From an uncultured virus (IMG/VR IMGVR_UViG_3300006217_000024) (Duplodnaviria; Heunggongvirae; Uroviricota; Caudoviricetes), in the IMG/VR virus record IMGVR_UViG_3300006217_000024: a stretch of DNA of 64,000 bases; one strand, written 5' to 3'. The notes below the pieces were generated by a model. That model saw nothing but the letters and a program-made list of their open reading frames with translations, made no database searches and was not told where the DNA came from. Shown here piece by piece: positions 3,006 through 63,738 of this stretch. Position 1 is the first letter of the stretch; every line of letters begins with the position of its first letter. A program made the position numbers and the translations under genes.

Positions 3006-3024
3006 GCGACACCTAACCCATACT
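3006..3024 (+). promoter_or_regulatory. Candidate late promoter GCGACAC-N7-A-N3-T
   Basis: Same spacing at 3095, 4768, 8509, 8999, 9217, 13079, 22296. Confidence 0.6.
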
Positions 3025-3059
3025 GACACTGCGGTTGGGTACCGTCTCCTTTCTAGGTT

Positions 3060-3090
3060 AGGCCGTCTTTCGGGGCGGCCTTTCCGCTTT
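3060..3090 (+). terminator. Hairpin with TTCG loop, probable intrinsic terminator
   Basis: AGGCCGTCT-TTCG-GGGCGGCCT followed by TTCCGCTTT. Confidence 0.6.
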
Positions 3091-3094
3091 CAGA

Positions 3095-3113
3095 GCGACA
3101 CATTGCGCACTAT
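3095..3113 (+). promoter_or_regulatory. Candidate late promoter for terminase (probably leaderless)
   Basis: GCGACAC-ATTGCG-CACTAT; ATG 8 nt after the -10 element; no clear SD. Confidence 0.6.
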
Positions 3114-3120
3114 CAGGGGC

Positions 3121-4788
3121 ATGTTGACCAACCCCAGACATGAGACCTTCGTGCAGTCGATCATTGGCGGCATGTCACAGCGCAAGGCCTACATAGAGGC
3201 CTATCCCAACGCTGCGAAATGGAAGCCTGAGACCGTGGATTCCAAGGCCTCTCACCTCTTCGCCGAAGATAAGGTTCGGACAAGGTACGAGGAGCTTCAG
3301 GCGGAGACGGCGAAGGATGCCAAGATCTCGCGCGTGAAACTCCTCAAGCGCCTTGATTGCCTTGCTGACAAGTCCGAGCGGGTGATCACGCAGGTATACG
3401 ACGAAGAGGGCCGCATCAATTTCAATGCATCCCAGGCGCTTATATCGGCTACGAAGGAACTGCTTCCCTTCGCTGAGGACGAAGCCGAGGAAAAAAAGCT
3501 TTTCGTAGCAGACTTCGGATTGCTCCTCGCCCCTGACTTCCTGAAGCCCCACCGCATGATCGCACGCCGAGAGGCTGTGGATTTCTGGGCAGGGGGCGGA
3601 CGCGGGTCCATGAAGTCGTCGTGGGCATCCCTTGAAGTCGTGAAGGATATAGAGGAGAACCCCGACCACCACGCCCTCGTGATGATGCGTTACAAGAACC
3701 AGCTACGGGACTCAGCTTACACGCAAGTGGTGTGGGCCATTCAGATCCTAGGCCTTGAAGATGACTACGAGATGCCAGCCTCCACCCTGCGCATCCGAAA
3801 GAAATCCACGGGGCAGCTCATCATTTTCAAAGGTTGCGACAATCCGAACAAGGTAAAGGGTGTCAAGGTCCCATTCGGATACATCGCCATCCTATGGATG
3901 GAAGAGTGCGACATGTTCCGAGGCATGGCCGAAATCCGAAAGGTCCAGCAGTCGGCCATCCGCGGCGGCGATGACTACATCCGTATGTACACCTTCAACC
4001 CTCCACGCTCCAAGCAGTGCTGGATCAATGAGCATGTTCAGGGCCTTAAGGATAGAGGACTACCCTACTTCGAAAGCAATTACCTCCGTGCTCCCGTCGA
4101 ATGGCTAGGTGAGCAGTTCATCGAGGATGCCGAAGAGCTCAAGCGCACAGACCCCCAAGCCTATGAGCATGAGTACATGGGCATTCCCGTGGGTCTTGGC
4201 GGGGATGTGTTCGACCGCTACACCTTCCGAGAGATCACCGATGGCGAGATAGCTGCGTTTGATAACCTCAGATGCGGCCAAGATTTCGGTTGGTTCCCTG
4301 ACCCATGGGCATTCACGATGTCCGAATGGCAGGCCGCCACGCGCACCATCCTCACCTGGTACGAAGACGGCGGGAACAAGCTTCCTCCCAATATCCAGGC
4401 AGAGCGGATCAAGGCCGCGCTCACATGGTCCGATGATGGACGCACCGAGACCTACCACCATGCCCGCGTGCTCTCAGATGATGCCCGAAACGACCTCATA
4501 TCAGCCCAGAGGGATGCCGGTGTCAATGCCAGAGCATCCGAAAAGGGTTTCATGCGCGAGGCATCCTACGAATTCTTGCAGTCATGCACCTGGGTAATAG
4601 ACCCAGTGCGCTGCCCACACCTCGCCAAAGAGGTGCGAGAGATGCAGTACGAGAAGAATGCAGATGACGAATGGCTTAACTCGATTCCGGATGGCAATGA
4701 CCACTGGGTAGATGCCACCCGCTACGCCTTCATGAGAGAGGCCAAGAAGCGCAGAGCCTACCGCGGAGCGACACCTCCGCCAAAGTAG
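3121..4788 (+). CDS. terL: PBSX-family terminase large subunit with N-terminal small-subunit-like domain
   Basis: GGGRGSMKS Walker A, LWMEE Walker B, TFNPP, GQDFG, NDHWVDATRY. Confidence 0.93.
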   Translation: MLTNPRHETFVQSIIGGMSQRKAYIEAYPNAAKWKPETVDSKASHLFAEDKVRTRYEELQAETAKDAKISRVKLLKRLDCLADKSERVITQVYDEEGRINFNASQALISATKELLPFAEDEAEEKKLFVADFGLLLAPDFLKPHRMIARREAVDFWAGGGRGSMKSSWASLEVVKDIEENPDHHALVMMRYKNQLRDSAYTQVVWAIQILGLEDDYEMPASTLRIRKKSTGQLIIFKGCDNPNKVKGVKVPFGYIAILWMEECDMFRGMAEIRKVQQSAIRGGDDYIRMYTFNPPRSKQCWINEHVQGLKDRGLPYFESNYLRAPVEWLGEQFIEDAEELKRTDPQAYEHEYMGIPVGLGGDVFDRYTFREITDGEIAAFDNLRCGQDFGWFPDPWAFTMSEWQAATRTILTWYEDGGNKLPPNIQAERIKAALTWSDDGRTETYHHARVLSDDARNDLISAQRDAGVNARASEKGFMREASYEFLQSCTWVIDPVRCPHLAKEVREMQYEKNADDEWLNSIPDGNDHWVDATRYAFMREAKKRRAYRGATPPPK

Positions 4789-19942: not shown

Positions 19943-20749
19943 ATGCCACACCTGGTCACATCACATCAAGGCGAAGACCATGTTGAATCCTACAATGACC
20001 GACACTACAACGCCGGGCATATCGGCAATGACTCCTATGCCTTCAAGGGTCGTGGGAATTTCGCTTGCTCGATGGTGGATTCGAACACCCTGCGCATCAT
20101 GTCTGGTGATGCTCAGTGTTGCGGAGCTCATTGGTCCATTGATTCTGATTATGAGGAATACACCATCGAGACCGGAACTCCTGGATACAAGCGTACCGAC
20201 CTAGTAGTTGCACACATCGAAACCGCGCCCCAAGAGACCATGGATATCCGTGTGCTCAAGGGCGAGGAGACCACCGGAACGCCCGTCACACCCTCCTATA
20301 TCGAAGGAGATCTGAACGCTGGCGATACTGTGGTGGAAATGCCTCTCTGTAGTGTGGAGCTTAATGGCATCAATCCAGGTCAGCCCAATATGTTGCTTGA
20401 TTTCTTGGTGCCATACAAGGAGTTTTGTGATTCCCTATCACAAAAGATGGAAATAGCCTGCGAGGACGTGATCGTCACCGTGAACCCGGTCACCAACATT
20501 AATAAAACGACCGGGCAACCCAATCCCGTAGTATTACCCTTCAGGAAAGTAACAGCTAGTAACTTCCTCGGTCGCCAGATGTTGAAAGCATGGCCCCGAA
20601 CCACATGGACCCCAGCGGGAGGATCACAGCCTATAGTTACAATGAGCGTAGGCTCGGGCGGTTTTGTATACAACCAGGCAGTTTTCGTTTCTAACCACTC
20701 GCAGCTTTACGAAATCTATGTCCGGGCTTGGTACTTACCGAACAAGTAA
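19943..20749 (+). CDS. Tail fibre/receptor-binding protein: constant N-terminus (163 aa) plus switchable cassette A (105 aa)
   Basis: N-terminus similar to 60067 (HLVT...HV, R-x-DLVV); unrelated after CDSLSQ; crossover core at 20431-20437. Confidence 0.85.
   Translation: MPHLVTSHQGEDHVESYNDRHYNAGHIGNDSYAFKGRGNFACSMVDSNTLRIMSGDAQCCGAHWSIDSDYEEYTIETGTPGYKRTDLVVAHIETAPQETMDIRVLKGEETTGTPVTPSYIEGDLNAGDTVVEMPLCSVELNGINPGQPNMLLDFLVPYKEFCDSLSQKMEIACEDVIVTVNPVTNINKTTGQPNPVVLPFRKVTASNFLGRQMLKAWPRTTWTPAGGSQPIVTMSVGSGGFVYNQAVFVSNHSQLYEIYVRAWYLPNK
20423..20445 (+). repeat. Recombination site S1 (expressed): TTTTGTGA-TTCCCTA-TCACAAAA
   Basis: Perfect 8-bp inverted arms around a 7-bp asymmetric core, in frame as GAT TCC CTA. 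Confidence 0.85.
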
Positions 20750-20767
20750 TTGATCCTATGTAGGCCT

Positions 20768-21067
20768 CTATTGCTTGCCCTGTACAGCAAGTACACCATA
20801 GGCTTGCCAATCGAACTTGCCCGCGTGAGCGAATGCGCCCCCATTGCGCACTTTGACCCGGAAGCCAGTCTCCGTGATGGAAAAGGGCGTGAACTCCATG
20901 TCCTTCGCTGTTTCAGGGGTCATAAGTCCGTCAAATGCGAGGCTAACACTCACTAAAGGAGGGTATCTGTAAGCCTTCGGGAACGATATAACTTCCGACT
21001 CTCTTGTGTTATTGGCTGGACAATCTACCCGGCCTTGGTCTGACTGCCTTCCATCCTGTAATAGGGA
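20768..21067 (-). CDS. Silent tail-fibre cassette B (99 aa, no start codon), H-type-lectin/gp53-like
   Basis: Open from core: SLLQDGRQ...ISFPKAYRYPPLVSVS...ITETGFRVKV...FDWQAYG...KQ*. Confidence 0.8.
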   Translation of the reverse strand, partial: SLLQDGRQSDQGRVDCPANNTRESEVISFPKAYRYPPLVSVSLAFDGLMTPETAKDMEFTPFSITETGFRVKVRNGGAFAHAGKFDWQAYGVLAVQGKQ

Positions 21068-21074
21068 ATAACTA
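21057..21074 (-). repeat. Recombination site S2: TAGTTA-TTCCCTA-TTACA (core 21062-21068)
   Basis: Same core, inverted relative to S1. Confidence 0.85.
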
Positions 21075-21353
21075 ATCTGGGATGAATATTACCCACAACC
21101 GATAGCGCACCACCTGCGAGACTGGAACCCGGATCGTTGCACCATCTCTTAAAGATGCAGCCGCCATAAAGCCGCCGCTGTATGCCATCAGGTCTTCAGA
21201 CTCACATACGGGAACGAAGGTGCCCTTTGCATCCAGGTTCAGCCCTAGATCATTGCGCAGTTGCTCGGGGGAGATGACAACCCTGCTTGTATGAGCTTGA
21301 AACGTTAGGGCATTCGTGTAAAAAGCGACGCGGGTTCGGGTCTGTTCTAGGGA
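21072..21353 (-). CDS. Silent tail-fibre cassette C (93 aa, no start codon; absent from ORF track)
   Basis: Open from core: SLEQTRTRVAFYTNAL...SQVVRYRLWVIFIPD*; stop abuts S2. Confidence 0.8.
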   Translation of the reverse strand, partial: SLEQTRTRVAFYTNALTFQAHTSRVVISPEQLRNDLGLNLDAKGTFVPVCESEDLMAYSGGFMAAASLRDGATIRVPVSQVVRYRLWVIFIPD

Positions 21354-21360
21354 ATAACTA
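21343..21360 (-). repeat. Recombination site S3: TAGTTA-TTCCCTA-GAACA (core 21348-21354)
   Basis: Same core, inverted relative to S1. Confidence 0.85.
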
Positions 21361-21543
21361 CAATGTGCGACTCATTATCGTTTTCCCGTTTTTCTGGATA
21401 GTAATCTGCGCGTATTCGCTTTGCGCCCATAGCTGCCCATACAGGTCTCCGTTTGTTATGCCTATTTGAAAAGCTTTATCAGTCACGGCAAATGTCAGTC
21501 TGCTGAGTTTGCTAATGAGTGTCTGTACTTCTTGCGATAGGGA
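21358..21543 (-). CDS. Silent tail-fibre cassette D (61 aa, no start codon)
   Basis: SLSQEVQTLISK...KTIMSRTL*; begins at core S4, stop abuts S3. Confidence 0.8.
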   Translation of the reverse strand, partial: SLSQEVQTLISKLSRLTFAVTDKAFQIGITNGDLYGQLWAQSEYAQITIQKNGKTIMSRTL

Positions 21544-21550
21544 ATCACGC
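21531..21550 (-). repeat. Recombination site S4: GCGTGA-TTCCCTA-TCGCAAG (core 21538-21544)
   Basis: Same core; the TGA in the arm is the recombinase stop codon. Confidence 0.85.
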
Positions 21551-22255
21551 GGCCATCGGAAGCTCTCTCGCCGGTTGCGGTGCAGGCTGTGGCGGGATGA
21601 TGCCCTTGTACATGTCATCGCAGCTTTTACCAAGCACCAATCGGGCAAGCCTGCGCTGCACCCGTCGCTTGGTCGCAGCAGTGATCTCCATGTAGTATCG
21701 GTAGCAGGTCTGGATATTGCTGTGTCCCATCATCTCAGCCACGTGCTCAATGGCTGCTCCGGCCTTGATCTCTACCGCACCAGTGCGCCAGTCGATGGAT
21801 TCCCAGCTGAGATAGTAGTTCTCGGAGGGACGCAACCCCAAGGCGCTCTGCAGGATTAAGGTCGGTTCAAATAGATGTCCGACAAAGCCGCGGATAAGCT
21901 TTTTCAGGCGACGCTGCGTAAGCGTGTTGAGAGGCTCTTGAGGCTTTTGGGTAATCTCGATCCTCCGTGTGGGGTCTATGGCCTCCAAGCCCTCATCTAT
22001 CGCCCACCGGATGATCTGTCTGAGGCATTTGTACGCCTTCTCTGCGCCTGATGGTCCGCGCAATGGTGTCAACTCGTCAACCCACGCTTGCACATCCTTA
22101 CGCGTGATCTCGCTAACCCTGAGCGCACCCCAGCGTGGCAATACGTGACGGTTGATGGATGACTCGTAGCCGTAAACGGTATCGGGCTTTCTGCGCTCAC
22201 GTTTCTCGGTGAGGTAGTCATTGCAAATCTCGGTGATGGTGCTCAGTTCGTACAT
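21545..22255 (-). CDS. Tyrosine recombinase (shufflon-type invertase candidate) with internal deletion
   Basis: N-terminal core-binding domain, GLRPSE, MGHSNIQTCYRYY; no HxxR segment; AAAGGAGG RBS before ATG 22255. Confidence 0.85.
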   Translation of the reverse strand: MYELSTITEICNDYLTEKRERRKPDTVYGYESSINRHVLPRWGALRVSEITRKDVQAWVDELTPLRGPSGAEKAYKCLRQIIRWAIDEGLEAIDPTRRIEITQKPQEPLNTLTQRRLKKLIRGFVGHLFEPTLILQSALGLRPSENYYLSWESIDWRTGAVEIKAGAAIEHVAEMMGHSNIQTCYRYYMEITAATKRRVQRRLARLVLGKSCDDMYKGIIPPQPAPQPARELPMAA

Positions 22256-22269
22256 AGCTCCTCCTTTGA

Positions 22270-22314
22270 GTGACAGCAGGCGCATCATCTGAGATGCGAC
22301 ATGTGGAGGATTAT
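22270..22314 (+). promoter_or_regulatory. Two tandem late-promoter motifs before holin
   Basis: GTGACAG-CAGGCGC-ATCAT (prophage 2 type) and GCGACAT-GTGGAGG-ATTAT (prophage 1 type). Confidence 0.55.
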
Positions 22315-22342
22315 GTGGCCGTCACGAGCGAAAGGAGAGATT

Positions 22343-22780
22343 GTGGACTGGGTTACAGCAATAGCCTGGCAGCCGATTTTGGTGATAGTCGTGCTGATGG
22401 CGTTCGACATCATCACCGGCTTCGGCGGAGCCGCAAAGGAGGGTGTCATCCAATCAGGCAAGATGCGCGAGGGGCTATGGCATAAAGCGGGATTCCTGGG
22501 GTTGGTCGTCCTTGCGATCATCTGGGAAGTCGCGGTGCTGTGGATCAATTTCGACGCCTATCTAAAGGGCGCGGGCACCATCGTGCCGGAGTTCCCGGCG
22601 GTTTCCGTTGTGTGCGCATTCATAGCCTTGATCGAACTAATAAGCATCGTCGAGAACCTATGCGTACTCAACCCATCGATCGCGACTCTGCCCTTCATAA
22701 AGCAGCTGAAGGCTCACGATCCAGCGGCCCCGGACATCAAGGTCGAGGTTGATGACGGCGACACACGCACAGACGAGTAG
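22343..22780 (+). CDS. Holin (Phage_holin_4_1-like)
   Basis: DIITG...SGKMREGLWHK...ELISIVENL; hydrophobic segments; AAAGGAG RBS before GTG. Confidence 0.9.
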   Translation: MDWVTAIAWQPILVIVVLMAFDIITGFGGAAKEGVIQSGKMREGLWHKAGFLGLVVLAIIWEVAVLWINFDAYLKGAGTIVPEFPAVSVVCAFIALIELISIVENLCVLNPSIATLPFIKQLKAHDPAAPDIKVEVDDGDTRTDE

Positions 22781-23060
22781 CCCTACAGCCAGTCAAGAGC
22801 GGCGCGTGATGCTGATCGCGGCGCTGCTTGCCTTTGGTATGGTGGCCCTTGTCATGGCCATACGCCTCGGGTCGTGGTTTCTCGCGCCCGCTGAGGTGCC
22901 ACCAGAGCCAGAGACGCTCCCTGCTGTTGATCTGCCCCTCCTCACGCCCCTGCAGCGCGAGGAGGCCCGCAGAAGCGGCGTGGGTGCTTATGAGTTTGAC
23001 GGCATGTGGTATGTAAACGCGGCTTTGCCGCCTGAACACTGGGAGGACTGGATTGGCTAA
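22749..23060 (+). CDS. Membrane-anchored protein in lysis module (start uncertain)
   Basis: One hydrophobic segment; lies between holin and endolysin. Confidence 0.55.
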   Translation: MMTATHAQTSSPTASQERRVMLIAALLAFGMVALVMAIRLGSWFLAPAEVPPEPETLPAVDLPLLTPLQREEARRSGVGAYEFDGMWYVNAALPPEHWEDWIG

Positions 23061-23880
23061 GCTATACATCATCTGCGGACATGGTGCCGGTGACCCTGGA
23101 GCCTGTGCTGCAGGACAGACCGAGGCCGACAACGTACGCACGCTAGCGGCACGGATCAAGGAGCTTGGAGGCTCTGAGGTCAACGTCCTGGACACAGGGC
23201 GCAACTGGTATGCCGATGCAGGCATCAACAAGCTGAGCATCTCCAAAGGCTCGGCTCTGCTTGAGTTGCACATGGACTCAGCAGTTGAGACCGCACGGGG
23301 CGGGCATGTCATCATCAAGTCAGGCTATGATGCTGATGACTGGGACAAGGCGCTAGCAGCTGGGATAGCCGCGATTCTGCCCGGGCGTGCTGAGACCATC
23401 GTACATCGCAACAACCTCGCCAACGTCAACCGAGCGGCAGCGCGCGGCATCAACTACCGCCTTCTGGAGACAGGATTCATCAGTAACGAGGATGATCGGA
23501 ATATCTTCAATGACCGCCTTGACGATATCGCACACGTCATCCTGGCATCGTTCGGTATCGGTTCTCATGATGATATCGAGCCGTCTCCGAGCGCACCAGC
23601 CACAGATAGCGACGGCTTCGGTGGCACATACCGCTGCCAGGTCGACGGCTTGCGCGTGCGCACGGGCCCCGGCCTCTCCTACGCCCAGGCTAAGGATGCG
23701 AACGGCAATCTGGTCTGCTACAACAAGGGTGGCGAGGTCATACTGGATGATTGGTTCAGGTCGGCTGACGGCTATATCTGGGGCAGGTATACCGGAGCGC
23801 AAAGCGGCCAGCTGCGATACGTGGCGGTTGGAAAAGCTACCGGCAAGCCGGAGCCTGATGACTTCCTGGTCAAGGTCTAA
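23053..23880 (+). CDS. Endolysin: N-acetylmuramoyl-L-alanine amidase plus SH3-like wall-binding domain
   Basis: GHGAGDPGA, ELHMD, LLETGFISN; C-terminal LRVRTGPG...DGYIWGRY. Confidence 0.92.
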   Translation: MAKLYIICGHGAGDPGACAAGQTEADNVRTLAARIKELGGSEVNVLDTGRNWYADAGINKLSISKGSALLELHMDSAVETARGGHVIIKSGYDADDWDKALAAGIAAILPGRAETIVHRNNLANVNRAAARGINYRLLETGFISNEDDRNIFNDRLDDIAHVILASFGIGSHDDIEPSPSAPATDSDGFGGTYRCQVDGLRVRTGPGLSYAQAKDANGNLVCYNKGGEVILDDWFRSADGYIWGRYTGAQSGQLRYVAVGKATGKPEPDDFLVKV

Positions 23881-24691: not shown

Positions 24692-24756
24692 AGGCACTGG
24701 TGGCAAATTGCGGCAAGTAAATTCAAAGAGTTCCCAGTTCGGGGGCACATTATCAG

Positions 24757-24783
24757 AGGGTTCGAATCCCTACTCCTCCGCCA
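24757..24783 (+). other. att core: 3' fragment of a tRNA gene (probably Ser) at the prophage junction
   Basis: AGGG-TTCGAAT-CCCTA-CTCCTCC-G-CCA = T arm, acceptor strand, discriminator G, CCA; no 5' half upstream. Confidence 0.85.
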
Positions 24784-24798
24784 TCCTTGATTTTGCAA

Positions 24799-34538: not shown

Positions 34539-37367
34539 ATGCGGACGCTGTCCATCGACATAGAGACGTATTCCCCGGCCGACCTTCCGTCGGTCGGGGT
34601 GTACAGATACGCTGCAGCGCCTGGCTTCCAGGTGCTGCTGTTCGCTTACGCGTTCGATGACGAGGCCGTGGCGGTCGTGGACACAACGCGCGAGGAGCTG
34701 CCCGATGAGGTGCTCTTCGCGCTCATGGACCCGAACGTCGAGAAGCACGCATTCAACGCTTCCTTCGAGCGCGTGTGCCTATCGCGCTACGTGGGGCTGC
34801 CCGAGGGGCAGTATCTGGACCCGGCGCAGTGGCGGTGCACGATGGTGCAGGCGGCCTACTTCGGGGCCATCGGGGGCCTGGCGAACGTCGCCCGGTTCCT
34901 CAAGGTGCCCGTGGAGAAGGACGCGGCCGGCACGCGGCTGATCAACAAGTTCTCCAAGCCCCAGAAAAAGCCGCCGGCGCGCGAAGGAGAGGACTGGGAG
35001 CGCTTCATGTCCTACTGCGTCCGCGACGTGGAGGTGGAGCGCGCCATAGCGACCGACCTCCCAGGCCCGCTGCCTGAGGAAGAGCAGGCCGTCTACGTGG
35101 CGGACCAGCGGATCAACGATAGGGGCGTGCGCATCGACCGCGCGCTGGCCGCTGCGGCCTGCGACATGGCGGAGGCGGATGCGCGCGCGGCCAAGCGCCG
35201 CCTGGCGGAGGTGACCGGCCTCGCGAACCCCAACTCCGTGGGCCAGCTCCTGGGCTGGCTGCAAGGGCGCGGATGCGCCATCGAGAACTGCGCCCGCGCC
35301 ACGCTGGAAGCGGAACTGGCGCGGCCGGACCTGGACGCGGATGCGCGCGAGGCCATCGAGCTGCGCCTGGGGTCGGCCAAGGCATCAGTGAAGAAGTACA
35401 TCGTGGCCCGAGACGCGCCAGGGACGGACGACCGCCTGCGCGGATCGTTCATGTTCTACGGCGCGGCCACGGGCCGGTGGTGTCTCACGGGCGACCACGA
35501 AGTCCTGACCTGCAACGGTTGGGTTCCTCTTGACTCGTGGAAGGGCGGAGAGATAGCGGTCTGGAACGCCGACACGGAAACGGTGTCCTTCCAATCATCC
35601 CGCGCCCTTCGATTCGAGTACGAGGGCCCGATGGTAGAGATCGAATCAAAACGGGTGTCCCAGCTGAGCACGCCGGATCACAAAATGGCGGTTTGGGACG
35701 ACACGCGTGGCTGGACGGCCAGAGCCGTGAGAAATATGCGTGCTCGGGAAAAAGTGCCCTACACGGGCTACCGTAGAGTGCAGACCGCGCCCGACCCTCT
35801 TGAGCTTAGGATCCTCGTGATGACCCAGGCCGACGGGCACTACACGAGGGAGGGAGCGCTGAGATTCCGATTCAAGCGTGAACGGAAGATCGAGCGCTGC
35901 AAGCATCTACTCCGCCGGGCTGGCATGACCCACGTCTGTCAATCAAACAAAGACGGAAGCGTGTCTATCTCCATCCGCGCCTGCCACCTCCCTGCGTACC
36001 TTCGGTTCTTCAGGAACAAGACGTTCGGCTGGTGGATCCTCAACGAGGACCCCGAGGTGTTTTTCGAGGAACTTGAGCTGTGGGACGGCAGCAGGTCATC
36101 GGACAACTCGATGCAGTACGTAACGACCAATCGACACAACGCCGAGATCGTGCAGACCTTCGCACACCTCAGTGGGAGGGCTTCATGTATCGCGGTAAAG
36201 CACCGGGATACGGAGGACTGGAGCACGGCCTACTGTGTAAACGTTTGGCACCGTCCGGGGAACCGAAACGAACTGCGCTCCGCAAGAAAGGAGATCCCGT
36301 TTTCGGGGATGGTGTACTGCGCCGAGACCCCGACGGGCTTCTTCCTCGTCCGCAGGAACCGAAAGATCTGGGTCACGGGCAACTCGGGCAGGTTGATGCA
36401 GCTGCAGAACATGCCGAGAGGGTCCCTCTCAGGCGAGGACCTGGACGCCGCCCGCGCCCTGGTGCGACAGGGTGACGCGGAGGCCGTGCGGTTGCTCTAC
36501 GGCGACGTGCAGGGCGTGCTCAAGAGCCTGGTGCGCACCACGCTGGTCCCCGAGGACGGGCACCTGTTCGCCGTGGCGGACTACTCGGCCATCGAGGCGC
36601 GCGTGCTCGCATGGCTGGCCGGCGAGGAATGGGTGCTGGAGGTCTTCCGCGGAGACGGCAAGGTCTACGAGGCCACCGCGTCCCGCATGTTCGGCGTGCC
36701 CGTCGAGCAGGTGGACAAGGCCCTGCGCGCCAAGGGCAAGGTGGCCACGCTGGCGCTCGGCTACCAGGGAGGCCCCGCCGCGCTTGAGCGCATGGGCGCG
36801 CTGGAGGCCGGCATCCCGAAAGACGAGCTCCCGAAGATCGTGCGGATGTGGCGCAACGCCAACCCGCGCATCAAGGGCCTGTGGCCGCGCGTGGAGCAGG
36901 CCGTGAGGGACGCTCTGTTGGGCCGCGGATCCTCGCGCGTCTGCATGGGGCGCGTCCGCGTGCGCAAAGCCCCCGAGGTGCGGGGCTTCGCGATCGAGCT
37001 GCCGTCAGGGCGCGAGCTCTTCTACCGCAACGCGAAGGTGCGCGATGAGGATCTGCACATCATCTATGAGGTCTGCAGCAAGGGCGCGGGCGTCCAGACC
37101 GTCGAGACCTACGGCGGCCGCCTGGTGGAGAACATCACCCAAGCGGTCGCGCGCGACCTTCTGGCCGCGAGCCTGGAGCGCGTCGAGAGGCGCGGGTATC
37201 AGCCTGTGGCCCACGTGCACGACGAGGTGGTCTGCGAGGTCCCCGAAGCGGAGGCCGAGGCGTGCCTCGACGGCATCCGCGACGCCATGTGCACGGTGCC
37301 TGCATGGGCCGAAGACCTGCCCTTGGACGCTGACGGCTACGTGTGCCAGAACTACAGGAAGGAATAG
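34539..37367 (+). CDS. Family A DNA polymerase containing an intein
   Basis: DIETYS, HAFNASFE, ATGRW, DYSAIEARV, GKVATLALGY, HVHDE. Confidence 0.95.
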   Translation: MRTLSIDIETYSPADLPSVGVYRYAAAPGFQVLLFAYAFDDEAVAVVDTTREELPDEVLFALMDPNVEKHAFNASFERVCLSRYVGLPEGQYLDPAQWRCTMVQAAYFGAIGGLANVARFLKVPVEKDAAGTRLINKFSKPQKKPPAREGEDWERFMSYCVRDVEVERAIATDLPGPLPEEEQAVYVADQRINDRGVRIDRALAAAACDMAEADARAAKRRLAEVTGLANPNSVGQLLGWLQGRGCAIENCARATLEAELARPDLDADAREAIELRLGSAKASVKKYIVARDAPGTDDRLRGSFMFYGAATGRWCLTGDHEVLTCNGWVPLDSWKGGEIAVWNADTETVSFQSSRALRFEYEGPMVEIESKRVSQLSTPDHKMAVWDDTRGWTARAVRNMRAREKVPYTGYRRVQTAPDPLELRILVMTQADGHYTREGALRFRFKRERKIERCKHLLRRAGMTHVCQSNKDGSVSISIRACHLPAYLRFFRNKTFGWWILNEDPEVFFEELELWDGSRSSDNSMQYVTTNRHNAEIVQTFAHLSGRASCIAVKHRDTEDWSTAYCVNVWHRPGNRNELRSARKEIPFSGMVYCAETPTGFFLVRRNRKIWVTGNSGRLMQLQNMPRGSLSGEDLDAARALVRQGDAEAVRLLYGDVQGVLKSLVRTTLVPEDGHLFAVADYSAIEARVLAWLAGEEWVLEVFRGDGKVYEATASRMFGVPVEQVDKALRAKGKVATLALGYQGGPAALERMGALEAGIPKDELPKIVRMWRNANPRIKGLWPRVEQAVRDALLGRGSSRVCMGRVRVRKAPEVRGFAIELPSGRELFYRNAKVRDEDLHIIYEVCSKGAGVQTVETYGGRLVENITQAVARDLLAASLERVERRGYQPVAHVHDEVVCEVPEAEAEACLDGIRDAMCTVPAWAEDLPLDADGYVCQNYRKE
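35481..36383 (+). mobile_element. Intein (301 aa) with LAGLIDADG-like homing endonuclease
   Basis: Starts CLTGDHEVLT, STPDH block B, MTQADG and ELWDG, ends VYCAE...IWVTGN followed by Ser; removal restores ATGRWSGR. Confidence 0.92.
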
Positions 37368-44334: not shown

Positions 44335-46059
44335 ATGAGCACGCCCAAGAAGATGACGCCCAAGCAGTTCGCGTTCGCGGACGGGATCGCGCACGGCAAG
44401 CGCCCGAGCGAGGCCTACCGCGACGCGGGCTACTCATGCGCGCGCATGAGCTCGGATTCCATCGCCACCGAGGCGAAGCGCCTGCAGCAGCATCCGCTCG
44501 TCCGCGCCCACATCGAGCAGGCCGCAGCAGCGGCCAAGGCGGCGGCGCAGTGGAACCTGGACAAGGCCGTGGAGCGGGTGCAGGTGCTCAATGACAAGGC
44601 GCATGAGGAGATCGCCCGCGCCGGGGTCGTGCAGAAGTCGGACGCCTGGAAGGCGCTCATCCAGTCCACCGACCGCCTGAACGCCTACACGGGCGTGGAC
44701 CGCGAGATCGCCAAGCTGGCGGAGGAGCGCGGCGAGGCGTCCGCCCCGCCCATCGACACCGCCTCCCTCGTGCCCGGCTGCTATGCGGACGCTTGGCGCG
44801 ACATCATGGAGGCGCGGCATTCCGAGTACATCGGCGAGAGCGGGCGCGGCTCGCTCAAGTCCACGGTGCTGCTGTCCTTGGCGCCCATCATGCTGATGCT
44901 CAAGGACCCGAAGCTCTGCGGCGTGGCGCTCCGGCGCGTGGGCAACACGCTCAGGGACTCCATCTTCGCCTCCCTCATCTCCGCCATCCGCCGCCTGGGC
45001 GTGGAGGAGCAGTTCGCCTGGAGCGTGTCCCCCATGGAGATCAAGCGGCCAGCAACGGGGCAGACGATCAAGTTCCGCGGCCTCGATGACGAGGAGAAGG
45101 CCAAGTCCCTGGCGCTGGATGACCCGGACCTCTACCTGGGCTTCGCCCTATGGGAGGAGTTCGACCAGCAGAAGGGCGAGCGGGCCGTGAGGCGCGTGGA
45201 GCAGACCATCAAGCGCGGACAGGCTCCGCACTTCTGGACCTTCCGCGCGTTCAACACGCCAGCGGACCCCGACCACTGGGCGCACGCCTACACGGCGCGC
45301 CAGGAAGCGAGCGGAGAGGCGCTGGTGCTGCGCCAGACCTACCGGGATATGCCGCCGGAGTTCCTGGGAGCGGACTTCATCGCCGACGCCGAGCGGTTGC
45401 GCGCCGTGAACGAGGACGCCTATCGCAACGAGTACCTGGGCGAGGCCGTGGGGCTTTCTGGGCGCGTGTTCACCAACGTGGCGGCGGCCGACATCCTGCC
45501 CACCGACGTGGCGGAGATGAAGTGGATCCGGCGCGGCATCGACTGGGGATTCGAGAACGATCCCTTCGTCTTCCTGTCGGTGGGCTACGACCGCAAGACC
45601 TCCACGCTCTACGTGTTCGACGAACTGTTCAACACCCACACGCTGGATCCGGACAACGTGGAGGCGGCGAAGGCCCTCATGGCCGAGCGCGACGGGGACG
45701 GCCAGCCTCTCTCGGACGCGGAGGGCCGCCCCGTCTTCAGGCGCGCCAAGCCTGAGAACGAGGTGCGCGCTGACGCCGCCGGCGCGAAGGACCGCGCCAC
45801 CTGGAGGCATATGGGCGTGAACGTCATGGGAGCGTCCAAGGCGGTGCCCGTGGCCGACGGCATCCGCTGGCTGGCCAAGCGCCACGCCATCGTCATAGAC
45901 CGCAAGCGCTGTCCCCTCGCCTACCAGGAGTTCACGCGCTACCGCGCCCTGGAGGACGACGAGGGGCGCTTCTTGGGCTACCCGGACAAGGACAACCACA
46001 CGATAGACGCCGTGCGCTATGCGGCGTTCGACCTCATAGCGGACCCGGACATCCCCTAA
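44335..46059 (+). CDS. terL: PBSX-family terminase large subunit with N-terminal small-subunit-like domain
   Basis: SGRGSLKS, LWEE, FNTP, GIDWG, DNHTIDAVRY. Confidence 0.93.
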   Translation: MSTPKKMTPKQFAFADGIAHGKRPSEAYRDAGYSCARMSSDSIATEAKRLQQHPLVRAHIEQAAAAAKAAAQWNLDKAVERVQVLNDKAHEEIARAGVVQKSDAWKALIQSTDRLNAYTGVDREIAKLAEERGEASAPPIDTASLVPGCYADAWRDIMEARHSEYIGESGRGSLKSTVLLSLAPIMLMLKDPKLCGVALRRVGNTLRDSIFASLISAIRRLGVEEQFAWSVSPMEIKRPATGQTIKFRGLDDEEKAKSLALDDPDLYLGFALWEEFDQQKGERAVRRVEQTIKRGQAPHFWTFRAFNTPADPDHWAHAYTARQEASGEALVLRQTYRDMPPEFLGADFIADAERLRAVNEDAYRNEYLGEAVGLSGRVFTNVAAADILPTDVAEMKWIRRGIDWGFENDPFVFLSVGYDRKTSTLYVFDELFNTHTLDPDNVEAAKALMAERDGDGQPLSDAEGRPVFRRAKPENEVRADAAGAKDRATWRHMGVNVMGASKAVPVADGIRWLAKRHAIVIDRKRCPLAYQEFTRYRALEDDEGRFLGYPDKDNHTIDAVRYAAFDLIADPDIP

Positions 46060-58799: not shown

Positions 58800-59785
58800 T
58801 GGCGCTCGTCATCACGGACAAGGCGGGGCAGGACCTGCGGGAGCTGGAGGATGTTGATTTCGATCTGGCCTACGGCAGCGAGGAGAACGACTGGGAGCTC
58901 GTCATCGACACCGCCTCCGATATCCGCCTAGAGCCACGAGCGCGGATATACATGGAGGGGACCGAATATATCGGCATCTATGACGGACGCGAGGTGGACA
59001 CTGGCGAGAAGACGATCACCTATACCGGTAGGACATGGAGCGGGGTGCTTGCCTCCAGGTTCCTGATCCCAGACACAGGAAGCGATTACATCACCTACCA
59101 GCAAGACGCGAACCGTCTCATCGAATGGGCGATCACGCGCTTGGGCCTGGGCGAGTTCTTCAGGGCCCGCACAAGTGACGCCGGAATCGTCGTGACCGGA
59201 AGGTTCGACCGCTTTGCCGACGGGTATGCGGGGCTTTGCAAGGCTCTCTCCTCTGGCGGCGCGAAACTCAAGGCGATCTATGACGGTGAGCGCGTAGAGC
59301 TTTACGCCCTTCCGGTCGCCCGCTACACCGAGGGAGAGGCCCTTGACGCGGATGAGATCACGCTTGTGATCAAGCAGAACCGAGGGTGCGTGAACCATCT
59401 GATCTGTGCGGGAAAGGGTGAACTGCGGGACCGCATCGTGGTGCATCTCTACGCCGATCGCAAGCATCGGATATCACGCACCCAGACCCTGTTCGGCGTG
59501 GATGAGGTTGCCGAGTTCTACGACTACAGCAACGCCGAGGAGGCAGATCTGTTAGAGAAGGGCATCGCCAAGCTGCAGGAGTATCAAGAGACCAGCGAGA
59601 TGGTGGAGGTCACGATCAACAGCGAACGCGAGCTCGATATAGGGGACGTGGTGGGTGCTACTGATCCAGAGACAGGGCTTGCCGCCACAGCGACAGTAAC
59701 CAAGAAGATCGTGACAAGCGATGGGGAGACATGGACGGCAGAGTACAAGGCCTCGGCCGCTGCCACAGTCAGCATAGCCGCCTGA
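58799..59785 (+). CDS. Baseplate hub / Gp37-like minor tail protein
   Basis: GRTWSG, AGKGELRDR, LDIGDVVG. Confidence 0.75.
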   Translation: MALVITDKAGQDLRELEDVDFDLAYGSEENDWELVIDTASDIRLEPRARIYMEGTEYIGIYDGREVDTGEKTITYTGRTWSGVLASRFLIPDTGSDYITYQQDANRLIEWAITRLGLGEFFRARTSDAGIVVTGRFDRFADGYAGLCKALSSGGAKLKAIYDGERVELYALPVARYTEGEALDADEITLVIKQNRGCVNHLICAGKGELRDRIVVHLYADRKHRISRTQTLFGVDEVAEFYDYSNAEEADLLEKGIAKLQEYQETSEMVEVTINSERELDIGDVVGATDPETGLAATATVTKKIVTSDGETWTAEYKASAAATVSIAA

Positions 59786-59804
59786 GTGACACCAGGCGCA
59801 TGAT
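59786..59804 (+). promoter_or_regulatory. Candidate late promoter before tail-fibre genes
   Basis: GTGACAC-CAGGCGC-ATGAT. Confidence 0.6.
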
Positions 59805-59833
59805 GGAGGCGAAACGCGAAGGAAGGACAGGAT

Positions 59834-60070
59834 ATGGGTGTTACTTCTGGATACTCAGAGTACGTATGCGAGGGCTGCGACGAGCTGGCCATGATCAAGG
59901 ACGATGACAACACCGCCAAGAACAAGTGGCAGGAGATCGAGCGTGTGACCGCTGATGGGCAGCACATCAAGCGGATGCTGTGCGAGAAGTGCCGCAAGGC
60001 CTACAGCCCCTTTGCTGCTGAACAGGACGCCGCCTTCAACGCCTTCATGGCCTCTCGCAGGAGCGCATGA
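59834..60070 (+). CDS. Small zinc-finger-like protein before tail fibre
   Basis: CEGC...LCEKCRK. Confidence 0.65.
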   Translation: MGVTSGYSEYVCEGCDELAMIKDDDNTAKNKWQEIERVTADGQHIKRMLCEKCRKAYSPFAAEQDAAFNAFMASRRSA

Positions 60071-60918
60071 TGGAGATCGTAACCGGCTTCCAGGGGAAGA
60101 ACCACGTCACCGCCCAGCAGCTCTCTCGCCTGATCTCCGGCTTAGCAGGAGACGAGACCTATGTCCTTGACACGCAGGACCAGCTGGCGATAGAAGTTGT
60201 CTCAGCCAACAAGGTGACCATAGCCACAGGCGATCTGATTGCTCAAGGCACCTACTTCACCAACGAGGCCCCCGAGGATCTGGTGATCGAGAACGGCGTA
60301 ACGGGTCTGAACCGCAACGATCTCATCGTCTGCAGGTACGAGAAGGCGGAACCTGCAGTCGACGAAGATGGGAATCCGGACTACACGATTCCGCGTATCG
60401 AAAGCGGTGACTGGGCTGTGGTGAAAGGCACGCCCTCCTCAGGCACCCCAGAAGACCCGTCGGTCGTCACTGCATCCCTTCAGGATCCGAACACGTCCCT
60501 GGCAGAGTTCCCCGTTTACCGTATTCCGATACGCGGGCTGTCTGTAGGGACACCCGAGCGGATACCCCCGGTGATCCCCTCTATGCGTGAAGCTTGTGAT
60601 TCCCTATCACAAACGCTCGAAGGCACATGGCAGCGCATCTCTGGAGGCAAGGGAAACGGACAGTGGTTCAATAGTCCGCTTCTTGGCGCCACGAAAATCA
60701 TCCTCGCAGTCGAACATGATGCTCACGAGTCATTGATTGTTTGGCGCACGGTCACCCTCGAAGAGCTGGAGCAGGCGAACGCATCAAATCCAGTGGTTGT
60801 ATCATCCTTGATCGAGCCGCAGACCTACTCCATCTCAGCATACATTTCGAATGGAAACATATATGGAAAGAACGCAAATCCGAACTTTGCGACAGTATGG
60901 ATCTATGGACTCGTGTAG
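60067..60918 (+). CDS. Tail fibre/receptor-binding protein: constant N-terminus plus switchable cassette A' (105 aa)
   Basis: Similar to 19943 up to CDSLSQ; core at 60600-60606. Confidence 0.85.
   Translation: MMEIVTGFQGKNHVTAQQLSRLISGLAGDETYVLDTQDQLAIEVVSANKVTIATGDLIAQGTYFTNEAPEDLVIENGVTGLNRNDLIVCRYEKAEPAVDEDGNPDYTIPRIESGDWAVVKGTPSSGTPEDPSVVTASLQDPNTSLAEFPVYRIPIRGLSVGTPERIPPVIPSMREACDSLSQTLEGTWQRISGGKGNGQWFNSPLLGATKIILAVEHDAHESLIVWRTVTLEELEQANASNPVVVSSLIEPQTYSISAYISNGNIYGKNANPNFATVWIYGLV
60594..60612 (+). repeat. Recombination site S1': TTGTGA-TTCCCTA-TCACAA
   Basis: Same core and inverted arms as S1. Confidence 0.85.
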
Positions 60919-61196
60919 ATGGTCATATGGCATAGGGGGATGCAGAGCAGATCAACCGTTGGGCGAACCGTATGCGCGCCGCTTATGAGATTCCTAATAC
61001 GTCCAGATATAGCATTCTCATAGAGAAGACATCTGGTTATCACGGCATCGGCTGAATACGAATCAAACCCCGCGATACCCATTACCCTGTAGTCTTCCTG
61101 GATCTTCGTGATGTCGACGGAAAAGACCTCGGCACCGTTAGGCCTAAGGGCAATATCACCCGCCGCAACACTGATTCTGGTGGACTGTAATAGGGA
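60903..61196 (-). CDS. Silent tail-fibre cassette B' (97 aa, no start codon; absent from ORF track)
   Basis: Open from core: SLLQSTRISVAAGDIAL...VDLLCIPLCHMTIYTSP*. Confidence 0.78.
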   Translation of the reverse strand, partial: SLLQSTRISVAAGDIALRPNGAEVFSVDITKIQEDYRVMGIAGFDSYSADAVITRCLLYENAISGRIRNLISGAHTVRPTVDLLCIPLCHMTIYTSP

Positions 61197-61203
61197 ATAA
61201 CTA
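61185..61203 (-). repeat. Recombination site S2': TAGTTA-TTCCCTA-TTACAG (core 61191-61197)
   Basis: Matches S2 over both arms. Confidence 0.85.
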
Positions 61204-61386
61204 CAATGTGCGACTCATTATCGTTTTCCCGTTTTTCTGGATAGTAATCTGCGCGTATTCGCTTTGCGCCCATAGCTGCCCATACAGGTCTCCGTTTGTT
61301 ATGCCTATTTGAAAAGCTTTATCAGTCACGGCAAATGTCAGTCTGCTGAGTTTGCTAATGAGTGTCTGTACTTCTTGCGATAGGGA
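61201..61386 (-). CDS. Silent tail-fibre cassette D (same as prophage 1)
   Basis: SLSQEVQTL...MSRTL*; core at 61381-61387. Confidence 0.8.
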   Translation of the reverse strand, partial: SLSQEVQTLISKLSRLTFAVTDKAFQIGITNGDLYGQLWAQSEYAQITIQKNGKTIMSRTL

Positions 61387-61387
61387 A

Positions 61388-62098
61388 TCACGCGGCCATC
61401 GGAAGCTCTCTCGCCGGTTGCGGTGCAGGCTGTGGCGGGATGATGCCCTTGTACATGTCATCGCAGCTTTTACCAAGCACCAATCGGGCAAGCCTGCGCT
61501 GCACCCGTCGCTTGGTCGCAGCAGTGATCTCCATGTAGTATCGGTAGCAGGTCTGGATATTGCTGTGTCCCATCATCTCAGCCACGTGCTCAATGGCTGC
61601 TCCGGCCTTGATCTCTACCGCACCAGTGCGCCAGTCGATGGATTCCCAGCTGAGATAGTAGTTCTCGGAGGGACGCAACCCCAAGGCGCTCTGCAGGATT
61701 AAGGTCGGTTCAAATAGATGTCCGACAAAGCCGCGGATAAGCTTTTTCAGGCGACGCTGCGTAAGCGTGTTGAGAGGCTCTTGAGGCTTTTGGGTAATCT
61801 CGATCCTCCGTGTGGGGTCTATGGCCTCCAAGCCCTCATCTATCGCCCACCGGATGATCTGTCTGAGGCATTTGTACGCCTTCTCTGCGCCTGATGGTCC
61901 GCGCAATGGTGTCAACTCGTCAACCCACGCTTGCACATCCTTACGCGTGATCTCGCTAACCCTGAGCGCACCCCAGCGTGGCAATACGTGACGGTTGATG
62001 GATGACTCGTAGCCGTAAACGGTATCGGGCTTTCTGCGCTCACGTTTCTCGGTGAGGTAGTCATTGCAAATCTCGGTGATGGTGCTCAGTTCGTACAT
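61388..62098 (-). CDS. Tyrosine recombinase with internal deletion (same as 21545-22255)
   Basis: Identical translation. Confidence 0.85.
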   Translation of the reverse strand: MYELSTITEICNDYLTEKRERRKPDTVYGYESSINRHVLPRWGALRVSEITRKDVQAWVDELTPLRGPSGAEKAYKCLRQIIRWAIDEGLEAIDPTRRIEITQKPQEPLNTLTQRRLKKLIRGFVGHLFEPTLILQSALGLRPSENYYLSWESIDWRTGAVEIKAGAAIEHVAEMMGHSNIQTCYRYYMEITAATKRRVQRRLARLVLGKSCDDMYKGIIPPQPAPQPARELPMAA

Positions 62099-62185
62099 AG
62101 CTCCTCCTTTGAGTGACAGCAGGCGCATCATCTGAGATGCGACATGTGGAGGATTATGTGGCCGTCACGAGCGAAAGGAGAGATT

Positions 62186-62623
62186 GTGGACTGGGTTACA
62201 GCAATAGCCTGGCAGCCGATTTTGGTGATAGTCGTGCTGATGGCGTTCGACATCATCACCGGCTTCGGCGGAGCCGCAAAGGAGGGTGTCATCCAATCAG
62301 GCAAGATGCGCGAGGGGCTATGGCATAAAGCGGGATTCCTGGGGTTGGTCGTCCTTGCGATCATCTGGGAAGTCGCGGTGCTGTGGATCAATTTCGACGC
62401 CTATCTAAAGGGCGCGGGCACCATCGTGCCGGAGTTCCCGGCGGTTTCCGTTGTGTGCGCATTCATAGCCTTGATCGAACTAATAAGCATCGTCGAGAAC
62501 CTATGCGTACTCAACCCATCGATCGCGACTCTGCCCTTCATAAAGCAGCTGAAGGCTCACGATCCAGCGGCCCCGGACATCAAGGTCGAGGTTGATGACG
62601 GCGACACACGCACAGACGAGTAG
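62186..62623 (+). CDS. Holin
   Basis: Identical to 22343-22780. Confidence 0.9.
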   Translation: MDWVTAIAWQPILVIVVLMAFDIITGFGGAAKEGVIQSGKMREGLWHKAGFLGLVVLAIIWEVAVLWINFDAYLKGAGTIVPEFPAVSVVCAFIALIELISIVENLCVLNPSIATLPFIKQLKAHDPAAPDIKVEVDDGDTRTDE

Positions 62624-62903
62624 CCCTACAGCCAGTCAAGAGCGGCGCGTGATGCTGATCGCGGCGCTGCTTGCCTTTGGTATGGTGGCCCTTGTCATGG
62701 CCATACGCCTCGGGTCGTGGTTTCTCGCGCCCGCTGAGGTGCCACCAGAGCCAGAGACGCTCCCTGCTGTTGATCTGCCCCTCCTCACGCCCCTGCAGCG
62801 CGAGGAGGCCCGCAGAAGCGGCGTGGGTGCTTATGAGTTTGACGGCATGTGGTATGTAAACGCGGCTTTGCCGCCTGAACACTGGGAGGACTGGATTGGC
62901 TAA
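62592..62903 (+). CDS. Membrane-anchored protein in lysis module
   Basis: Identical to 22749-23060. Confidence 0.55.
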   Translation: MMTATHAQTSSPTASQERRVMLIAALLAFGMVALVMAIRLGSWFLAPAEVPPEPETLPAVDLPLLTPLQREEARRSGVGAYEFDGMWYVNAALPPEHWEDWIG

Positions 62904-63738
62904 GCTATACATCATCTGCGGCCATGGAGCAGGGGACCCTGGAGCCTGCGCGGCAGGCCAGACCGAGGAGGAGCGCGTCCGTGCGCTGGCGGCGATCATC
63001 AAAGAGCGCGGCGGCGCGGATGTGGAAGTGCTTGACACATCACGCAACTGGTACGTGGATGGCGGCATCAACAGTCTCACGTTGCCAGAGGGCGCTATGC
63101 TGTTGGAGCTGCATCGTGATTGGGCGGGAGAGAGCGCACGCGGTGCCCACGTGATCATCTATGCGGGCTTCGAGGCCGATGACTTCGATAAAGCCCTGGC
63201 ATCCAAGCTGTCCGCCATCCTTCCGGGACGTTCGCAGACCATCGTGAAGCGCAGCGATCTGGCAAACCCGAAGCGTGCTGCCAGACGCGGCATCAACTAC
63301 CGCCTCGTCGAGGTGGGCTTCATCTCCAACGCTGAAGACCGCAACATTTTCGACACGCGCATCACCGACATCGCTGACGCCATTCTGGCGGCAGCTGACA
63401 TCAGCATCCTGGCAACGAACCCACAGCCTGCTCAACCTGCCCCTACGCCGTCCAGCCCATCGGCATCTAGCTCGGCCGAGAAAGCTGGCTCTGGTTTCGG
63501 CGGCACCTATCGCTGCACCGTCTCCAAGCTCAACGTGCGGGACGCTCCGGGCCTCAGCGGAAACATCGTCACCAGCTATGCCAAGGGACAGACAGTCGTG
63601 CTCGATGATTGGTACGTATCACGAGATGGATACATCTGGGGACGTTACACAGGTGCTCAGAGTGGCAAGTTGCGGTATGTGGCTGTTGGCCGTGCCACCG
63701 GCAAACCAGAGCCGGATGACTATCTGATAAAGGTCTAG
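62896..63738 (+). CDS. Endolysin: amidase plus SH3-like domain
   Basis: GHGAGDPGA, ELHRD, LVEVGFISN, LNVRDAPG; diverges from the prophage 1 copy after about codon 9. Confidence 0.92.
   Translation: MAKLYIICGHGAGDPGACAAGQTEEERVRALAAIIKERGGADVEVLDTSRNWYVDGGINSLTLPEGAMLLELHRDWAGESARGAHVIIYAGFEADDFDKALASKLSAILPGRSQTIVKRSDLANPKRAARRGINYRLVEVGFISNAEDRNIFDTRITDIADAILAAADISILATNPQPAQPAPTPSSPSASSSAEKAGSGFGGTYRCTVSKLNVRDAPGLSGNIVTSYAKGQTVVLDDWYVSRDGYIWGRYTGAQSGKLRYVAVGRATGKPEPDDYLIKV

Follow-up and report, generated by a model that had tools for sequence, protein, structure and literature searches.

Two unrelated phages, assembled together in the uncultured virus record IMGVR_UViG_3300006217_000024 (Duplodnaviria; Heunggongvirae; Uroviricota; Caudoviricetes), carry one identical recombinase block and very probably have tail-protein tips in common in nature. 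We analyzed a stretch of 64,000 nucleotides of this record (hereafter the window), with emphasis on the tail-gene switch of the second phage at positions 60067 to 62098. The switch is almost certainly a shufflon of the Rin type, in which a short core with inverted arms separates, without a break in the frame, the constant half of a tail gene from its variable half and also precedes each spare tip, and an adjacent recombinase would rearrange the tips. We follow the nomenclature introduced for prophages integrated at dnaJ2 in Bifidobacterium breve and B. longum (Mavrich 2018, PMC6109161): Rc for the constant region, Rv for the variable cassettes, rin for the recombinase gene and rix for the crossover sites. 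The switch type and its layout are already known. The new element is that unrelated phages are documented here to have one recombinase block and tips in common, with the sharing divided by core type. Taken together, the observations are probably best explained by a Rin shufflon whose rin gene is dead in this record and whose tips have been traded between phages.

The expressed gene of the second phage (phage 2) begins with Rc2, a constant N-terminal region of 178 amino acids (aa) encoded by an open reading frame (ORF) at 60067..60600 on the plus strand. The gene is the last of the tail module and lies downstream of those for the tape measure and minor tail proteins. Rc2 shows 46% identity with B. 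longum proteins of 268 aa that have a 168+100 layout and a DSLT junction. A profile search revealed a weak match to a solved receptor-binding protein (E 0.004), and the nearest named cluster in the Atlas was the shoulder domain of the lactophage receptor-binding protein, a name found on 25% of the cluster members. From these comparisons, the fusion of Rc2 with a tip is predicted to be a likely receptor-binding (tail tip) protein. The constant region of the first phage (phage 1), Rc1, is 27% identical to Rc2 over 179 aa. In the expressed position Rc2 is followed by tip cassette A’ (60601..60918, plus strand, 105 aa). The silent cassette B’ (60903..61196, minus strand, 97 aa), whose end overlaps the end of A’, and cassette D (61201..61386, minus strand, 61 aa) come next. 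The phage-1 counterpart (19943..22255) consists of Rc1 fused to tip A (105 aa), silent tips B (99 aa), C (93 aa) and D (61 aa), and an identically deleted rin. The six distinct tips have no significant mutual similarity. Pfam returned nothing credible for A’, B’, C, D and A, while tip B gave a weak match to the H-type lectin family PF09458 (E 0.0003), and the Atlas provided no usable match for B’. When the four silent tips were base-shuffled (5,000 shuffles each), the frame stayed open in 0.7–2.7% of cases.

The tips are delimited by a repeated core. The 8-mer ATTCCCTA was found seven times in the window against 0.48 expected, a count reached by none of 100 shuffles. Four copies belong to phage 1 (20430 on the plus strand; 21062-21069, 21348-21355 and 21538-21545 on the minus strand) and three to phage 2 (60599 on the plus strand; 61191-61198 and 61381-61388 on the minus strand). 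At the junction of Rc2 and A’ the core is part of a 19-bp site, TTGTGA-TTCCCTA-TCACAA (60594..60612, plus strand), which codes for CDSLSQ. The first-pass annotation of this DNA had placed the same site at the same CDSLSQ position in both phages, and this is indeed the case (20425-20443 in phage 1). It had also proposed that two inverted cores, at 61191 and 61381, head the 97-aa B’ and D, and that six distinct, frame-compatible tips exist across the two phages. Both proposals were borne out, with all seven cores opening the frame in one register. The inverted rix heading B’ is TAGTTA-TTCCCTA-TTACAG (61185..61203, minus strand), and that heading D is GCGTGA-TTCCCTA-TCGCAA (61375..61393, minus strand), which overlaps the rin stop codon; a site of the same kind follows the rin stop in most relatives. 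The arms are complementary at six of six bases in the expressed sites and at three of six in the five silent ones. A secondary, imperfect site, GATTCCTAAT (60989..60998, plus strand), with two mismatches to the consensus, is located inside B’. No promoter-like site was found in 59700-62400.

The full virus record is 79,069 bp long and has a 77-nt terminal repeat, as a circular molecule would. Its sole long internal repeat, 1,731 bp with 100% identity, covers 21348-23078 (copy 1) and 61191-62921 (copy 2). Copy 2 has the inverted rix heading B’ as its left border, contains the core, cassette D, rin, a holin gene, a 102-aa ORF and the first endolysin codons, and ends inside a conserved amidase motif; copy 1 is followed by an endolysin gene. 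Cutting at the repeat produces circles of 39,843 and 39,149 bp, and each of them has a separate set of terminase, portal, capsid and tape measure genes. Proteins that the two phages have in common are 23–38% identical, and their endolysins 60%. Cassette D, which had been reported as shared, is identical in both phages, with the qualification that it is part of the 1,731-bp block. Since the block enters both phages as a unit, D travelled with rin. The GC content is 56% in the block, 54–55% in phage 1 and 63% in phage 2, nearer to phage 1, but its GC3 overlaps that of both phages, and either may have been the donor.

The order of the window is crosswise to both phages, as expected of an assembler path through two circles with one repeat. 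In the independent assemblies L001, L002 and L032, the phage-1 cassettes and the block run on into 62922 and onward, and a contig of sample X13 has the same phage-1 linkage, opposite to the window order. In a contig of sample X12 the block continues into the endolysin at 23126, which ties that endolysin to phage-2 cassette DNA. It might be supposed that the sharing as a whole is an artefact of assembly, in which short identical sites led to entanglement of two phages and collapse of a nearly identical repeat, with falsely shared cassettes and a false second dead rin as the result. The circular contig, its path and the opposite linkage of the flanks in independent assemblies agree with this, assembled proteins such as P0124 (see below) could be chimeric, and an artefact is the likely source of the crosswise order. 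For the sharing itself it is hardly credible. The depth of the block is about twice that of either flank in X1, X2, X3, X15 and X17, and in X1 and X3 one contig spans the block with double the depth of the flanks (16.1 compared to 8 and 27 compared to 13.9, respectively, with L032 as reference); the block is, therefore, identical in both phages there.

The 79-kb circle could also be a real cointegrate of both phages, formed through the shared block or a core. Such an event would bear on the order of the contig and not on the switch. A perfect identity of 1,731 bp would be an ample substrate, and the phages are present at similar depth in X1, X2, X3, X15 and X17, as in a double lysogen. A cointegrate is, however, improbable: the linkages in L001, L002, L032 and X13 for phage 1 and in X12 for phage 2 contradict the window, each half has structural and terminase genes of its own, and short reads cannot span the block.

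The rin gene (61388..62098, minus strand) codes for a tyrosine recombinase of 236 aa with matches to Pfam PF14659, PF22022 and PF00589; the recombinase families matched were tyrosine only, with no serine invertase. Compared to the 324-aa allele of L032, it has an in-frame deletion of 264 nt (88 aa) at approximately 61606-61613 that carries 4 nt of exact microhomology. The window gene is counted from the second Met, and a 99% identical homolog, P0001, has 324 aa. Of the 120 rin homologs among the matches listed, 117 are at least 305 aa long. The deletion removes residues 165-252, including K180 and R243, each present in 47 of 47 aligned sequences, and H244 (46 of 47); R142, H266 and the tyrosines are kept. 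The catalytic roles of the Lys, the box-II Arg and other rin residues were assigned from tyrosine-recombinase chemistry. The full catalytic set (R, K, H/K/R-x-x-R, H, Y) is present in the 324-aa allele (P0001, L032) and absent from the window allele. Because K180, R243 and H244 are deleted, the window Rin is predicted with high confidence to be inactive. The same 88-aa deletion is present in L002 and P0263, a recurrence that speaks against a false dead rin. A second deletion, of 110 aa and removing R142, was revealed in P0012; X2, X15 and X17 contain it together with an intact allele, while X1, X3, X12 and X13 contain intact rin only. Two different deletions indicate that rin was lost at least twice. 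In the sample from which the window was obtained, the switch would then likely be locked with A’ as the expressed tip, barring an intact Rin supplied in trans or a collapse of the repeat by the assembler.

In the intact allele the Pfam SAM-like domain starts at residue 6, and the phage integrase has about 60 extra N-terminal residues. Rin thus lacks an arm-binding domain and is distinct from the integrase. The recombinase that Bifidobacterium phage PMBT6 encodes next to its TTCCGTAACCC sites has 34% identity with intact Rin, compared to 23% for the phage 2 integrase. The Rin of Bb423phi1 was not among the matches. In P0013, a relative of rin, the C-terminus is swapped for unrelated sequence.

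The stretch is contained in 18 of 24 listed runs from seven studies, 14 of them labelled mouse or mouse gut. L032 sits in a genome bin of an uncultured Eggerthellaceae bacterium and has a 100% identical rin. The hosts are mouse-gut Eggerthellaceae. Contigs from 7 of the 18 runs were mapped, and their junctions in X1, X2, X3, X12 and X13 fall at cores. In three of four runs examined contigs stop at 60594..60612, the expression site of phage 2, and Rc2 is joined to D there in X3 (a 19,162-nt contig) and in X12, where a single 1,296-nt contig reads Rc2-D-C. Cassette C is followed by A’ in X1, X3 and X13. The rin gene is followed by C in X1 and X3, by A’ in X2 and X3, by B’ in X3 and by B in X13, in a contig that extends 146 nt past the joint; the Rc1 site is followed by D in X1, over 11 loose letters. 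Loose ends at 61203 (X15), 60594 (X2) and 6446 and 6464 (X3) were not used, being ambiguous, as the sites share up to 20 nt.

A second X12 contig contains the phage-2 endolysin, intact rin, a 190-nt gap and C reversed. Counted along B’ from the joint, 190 nt lead exactly to base 60994, inside the secondary site GATTCCTAAT. This suggests a crossover at the secondary site, the gap sequence itself not being displayed, and the X12 array would read Rc2-D-C-B’(truncated)-rin, A’ having been lost. Cassettes A and B of phage 1 are uncovered in X12, yet C is present amid phage-2 DNA, next to Rc2-D in one contig and next to B’ DNA, rin and the phage-2 endolysin in the other, an arrangement that argues against entanglement by an assembler. 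In the window C is found in phage 1 only; in X1 and X3 it has about double depth and two single-nucleotide polymorphism (SNP) alleles, and the Rc2-fused stored protein P0124 has the allele of X12 and X13. Isomers were found elsewhere as well: loci L023 and L064 contain the same five cassettes in different order, and L025 has two of them behind an Rc 97–98% identical. A 506-nt contig over D and C in X13 (L032:5975-6459) begins and finishes at the end of C (476+30 nt); it would fit an excised circle of 476 bp, but equally a tandem arrangement or a low-depth mixture of two isomers, and was not counted as proof.

Stored proteins provided a second view of the tips. They may be assembly chimeras and were weighed jointly with the contig junctions. 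The Rc2 junction was found in nine of them with eight different tips: A’, B’, D (100%), C (94%), a relative of B (82%), a relative of B’ (72%, whole tip) and two tips that are not in the window. The fusions to B’, D and C are P0126, P0123 and P0124, respectively. Cassette D is also found on Rc1 (P0267), and a relative of A’ (84%) is found in P0136, whose constant region has 26% identity with Rc2. Relatives of B’ at 80% were recorded on two other constant regions, in P0121 and P0387; the tips of these two proteins are identical at 92 of 92 positions and follow unrelated N-termini, one of them Rc2. Thus B’, described earlier as unique, is unique within the window and not beyond it. The same CDSLSQ junction ends four unrelated constant regions, and at least four such regions have been found to carry identical tips. 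The expectation that cassettes move independently of the phage backbone agrees with these data, as Rc2 carries eight tips that include D and the C of phage 1, and strict co-variation of tip and backbone was not encountered. Fusions of Rc1 to A’ or B’ were not found among the 120 listed of 229 homologs, so that reciprocity is demonstrated for D only. In P0268, Rc1 is followed by a short out-of-frame tip.

Related loci were collected in scans with P0001 and its alignment, which returned 3, 25, 21 and 80 loci, overlapping. We analyzed 78 loci and the two window copies; 54 distant loci (at most 29% identity) were left out. After 3 loci without rin, 14 with less than 300 nt downstream, 14 that were duplicates or had no recognisable core, and L008, which the pattern missed, were dropped, 48 loci remained. 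They contain 216 cassettes in 122 clusters, a few of the cassettes perhaps being chance matches. Ten core types were distinguished in the 48 loci: TTCCGTA in 22, TTCGCTG in 6, TTCCCTA in 5, TTCCATA in 5, TTCCTTA in 4, and five others. All five TTCCCTA loci belong to the two window phages. The 177 distinct sites gave a family consensus A-TTC-(C/G)-N-T-(A/G)-TCCC, in which the core columns mirror the search pattern. Conservation of the site among homologs therefore holds for its position behind rin, in most of them, and fails for its middle; as the middle varies, any pool of tips is split into core groups. Loci L010, L020, L044, L053 and L056 have arrays of 8–12 short cassettes (40–100 aa) with cores TTCGCTG, TTCCTTG or TCTATTT. 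Rin-type arrays are also present in L139 (PMBT6, MK932884.1) and L140 (OY725605.1), with three and seven TTCCGTAACCC sites, respectively, and a recombinase annotated only as integrase; the three sites of PMBT6 are all directly oriented. A scan of viral contigs with a 17-base site returned four stretches, one of them L002; the other three, which had no rin homolog or genome similarity, were dismissed as chance.

Cassettes at least 75% identical are shared by 18 pairs among 37 non-redundant loci (11 near-duplicates removed). The Rc regions are less than 50% identical in eight of these pairs and close in two, and eight have no Rc call. Equal cores are found in 16 of the 18 sharing pairs, compared to 22% among all 666 pairs, and none of 20,000 label shuffles gave as many, an excess in favour of tips having been traded at the core. 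Several points weigh against that view. The excess is confounded by kinship, because related rin genes have related cores and 10 of the sharing pairs have rin genes of 90% identity or more, which also implies that whole modules often move. Two pairs, L003/L056 (90%) and L044/L059 (87%), share cassettes across different cores; an identical core is, therefore, not strictly required, or cores change later. The block could have come from homologous recombination alone, its core edge resulting from later shuffling beyond it, and both window copies of rin may read as deleted through collapse of the repeat. The junctions were observed in assembled contigs rather than in reads or long molecules, and indicate presence, not frequency. 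As to receptor binding, the sole Pfam hint among the tips, that of B, is below the curated cut-off.

Much of this would be expected under the main alternative, in which Rin flips in cis only and tips cross between phages inside larger blocks of cassette array, rin and holin, moved by recombination that is homologous or of relaxed homology, the common core being a result and not a cause. The DNA common to the two window phages is one block, from D through rin and holin to the endolysin start, that ends in the conserved amidase motif; L011 and L013 have, besides the cassette, 1.5 kb from upstream through rin in common at 93.5%; the closely similar rin genes of 10 sharing pairs fit as well; and the cassette-C allele of L001 mixes SNPs of both alleles in a gene conversion-like manner, a weak indication from one contig. 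However, cis-only flipping is unlikely in view of pairs in which cassettes and rin part. L017 and L048 have three cassettes in common at 79–98%, with rin only 68% and Rc 40% identical, and L003 and L056 have one site-bounded 150-nt cassette in common at 94.7% DNA identity, with rin 66% identical. L017 and L018 have the same Rc and four cassettes in common at 100% identity, whereas their rin genes are 69% identical and L018 has three cassettes more; identity breaks at the rin-side core, which looks like replacement of rin and cassettes at a core. Finally, only the core lets a transferred array join an unrelated Rc in frame, and CDSLSQ is the end of four unrelated constant regions. The exchange pool proposed in the first-pass annotation is, thus, largely supported, while the common core as its cause is unproven, given that D came with the block and 2 of the 18 pairs cross cores.

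Under trading of tips between phages, which we favour, an intact Rin would pair two identical cores. Between inverted cores this would flip the DNA and place a new tip in the gene; between direct cores it would excise one or more cassettes; and between cores on two phage genomes in one cell it would likely yield a crossover between phages. A core crossover would explain why an exact block starts at a core in phages of about 30% protein identity: combined with another, homologous exchange at the conserved start of the endolysin gene, it would place an exact D-rin-holin block in both. With rin and core in common, both phages would draw on one set of tips, through Rin crossover and through homologous recombination in shared cassettes, and, with the core middle differing by lineage, exchange would be mostly within core groups. 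The chances that Rin itself makes the crossover between phages are about even. If it does, parts that determine host range would move by a dedicated site-specific route, with a few bases setting compatibility. More speculatively, and somewhat doubtfully, phages of gut Coriobacteriia could form an integron-like network, in which tips, excised by the recombinase as small circles, insert or cross into matching cores of unrelated co-residents, the core middle sets the partners, and one intact Rin serves two phages, so that spare rin copies are repeatedly deleted, locking a tip. The system is small, with one 324-aa enzyme, a 19-bp site and natural dead alleles and core variants, and would be directly testable.

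As far as the excerpts of PMC6109161 describe the Bifidobacterium Rin shufflon, the locus resembles it in Rc, in small Rv cassettes each behind a short asymmetric repeat, in a flanking tyrosine recombinase that is not the integrase, and in tips of about 95–100 aa that are mutually dissimilar. The Bifidobacterium rix, TTCCCTAACCC, includes TTCCCTA, as here. In contrast to that system, the host is an Eggerthellaceae bacterium, the arms are TTGTGA and TCACAA, no second direct rix follows right after the expressed gene, rin is internally deleted, and two phages whose proteins are about 30% identical have rin and cassettes in common; the loss of cassettes and the crossover at a secondary site, both deduced here from contigs, also set it apart from that account. 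The same excerpts deal with inversion within related prophages, raise the question of how deletion is avoided, and leave biochemical activity of the recombinase on rix to future studies. The contigs described above suggest that avoidance of deletion between direct sites is incomplete.

A Rin shufflon of Eggerthella lenta was described by Buttimer et al. in 2022. According to passages of PMC8778435, it belongs to clade 1 prophages and has the repeat ttccgtat. It is similar to the locus studied here in host family, layout and H-type lectin tips (cf. the weak match of tip B), and its repeat is the commonest core among our related loci (22 of 48). Its core, TTCCGTA, differs from TTCCCTA by one base, and the system comes from one prophage clade; the passages contain no discussion of exchange between unrelated phages or of dead rin genes. 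Rin was found described in PMC6109161 and PMC8778435 only, with one mention in a further article, PMC12282274. The accounts at hand concern flipping within one phage lineage, whereas here phages of about 30% identity use one identical recombinase and overlapping tips. No literature on Rin exchange between unrelated phages was found, supplements and most subscription journals being outside the search.

Tail-fibre inversion systems include Min of p15B, Cin of P1 and Gin of Mu, of which Min has multiple cassettes (excerpts of PMC6109161); truncated cin genes in P1-like elements and tail-fibre genes as common inversion targets are mentioned in parts of PMC6906374 and PMC9881135, respectively. A tail gene of constant and variable parts is switched by inversion there as well, and invertase decay is known in P1-like elements, judging from the same excerpts. 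However, those invertases are of the serine family, whereas the present enzyme is a tyrosine recombinase with a 7-bp core. Sites of Min, Cin and Gin are about 26 bp long; their invertases cross-complement, and mosaic tail fibres are found across coliphages. In integrons, too, a tyrosine recombinase adjoins arrayed cassettes; these have no promoters, undergo excision and reordering, and are common across replicons. The likeness is an analogy only, as the cassettes here are halves of a gene that occur in either orientation and are joined in frame through a single short site of double-stranded DNA.

No host genes are among the listed ORFs of the contig, and “prophage” therefore means temperate phage here. 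A relative of phage 2 was sought in viral contigs, where none of 38 candidates was confirmed, and an earlier rin of phage 2’s own, if there was one, was not found. Genome G001 contains phage 1 with the block and gave no phage-2 match, though the genomes are incomplete and absence is unproven; Rc2 was matched at E≤1e-30, with 48% identity, in 1 of 339 genomes of the family of G001. Half-tRNA-like sequences, namely 3’ halves that we judged by eye to be of serine type, adjoin each integrase (window ~24749-24785; genome C1 ~65935-65990) and are likely attachment sites; ARAGORN and Rfam called no tRNA, these halves included. In L032 the second of them borders phage 1 and host DNA, the latter resembling a citrate synthase gene in one motif.

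Within the shared block, the holin gene (62144..62623, plus strand; PF05105, E 3.5e-14) is followed by the 102-aa ORF (62595-62903), which has a hydrophobic N-terminus and no PHROG match at 1e-8, and by the amidase endolysin gene (62896..63738, plus strand; PF01520), which past 62921 is phage 1 DNA in independent assemblies. In both phages the small (TerS) and large (TerL) terminase subunits seemingly form one open frame (2863-4788 and 44335-46059), with a PHROG TerS match in the N-terminal and TerL matches in the C-terminal part. A 78-aa CxxC protein (phrog_28750) is encoded just 5’ of Rc2 at 59834-60070, and the phage 2 DNA polymerase (942 aa; phrog_17) at 34539-37367.

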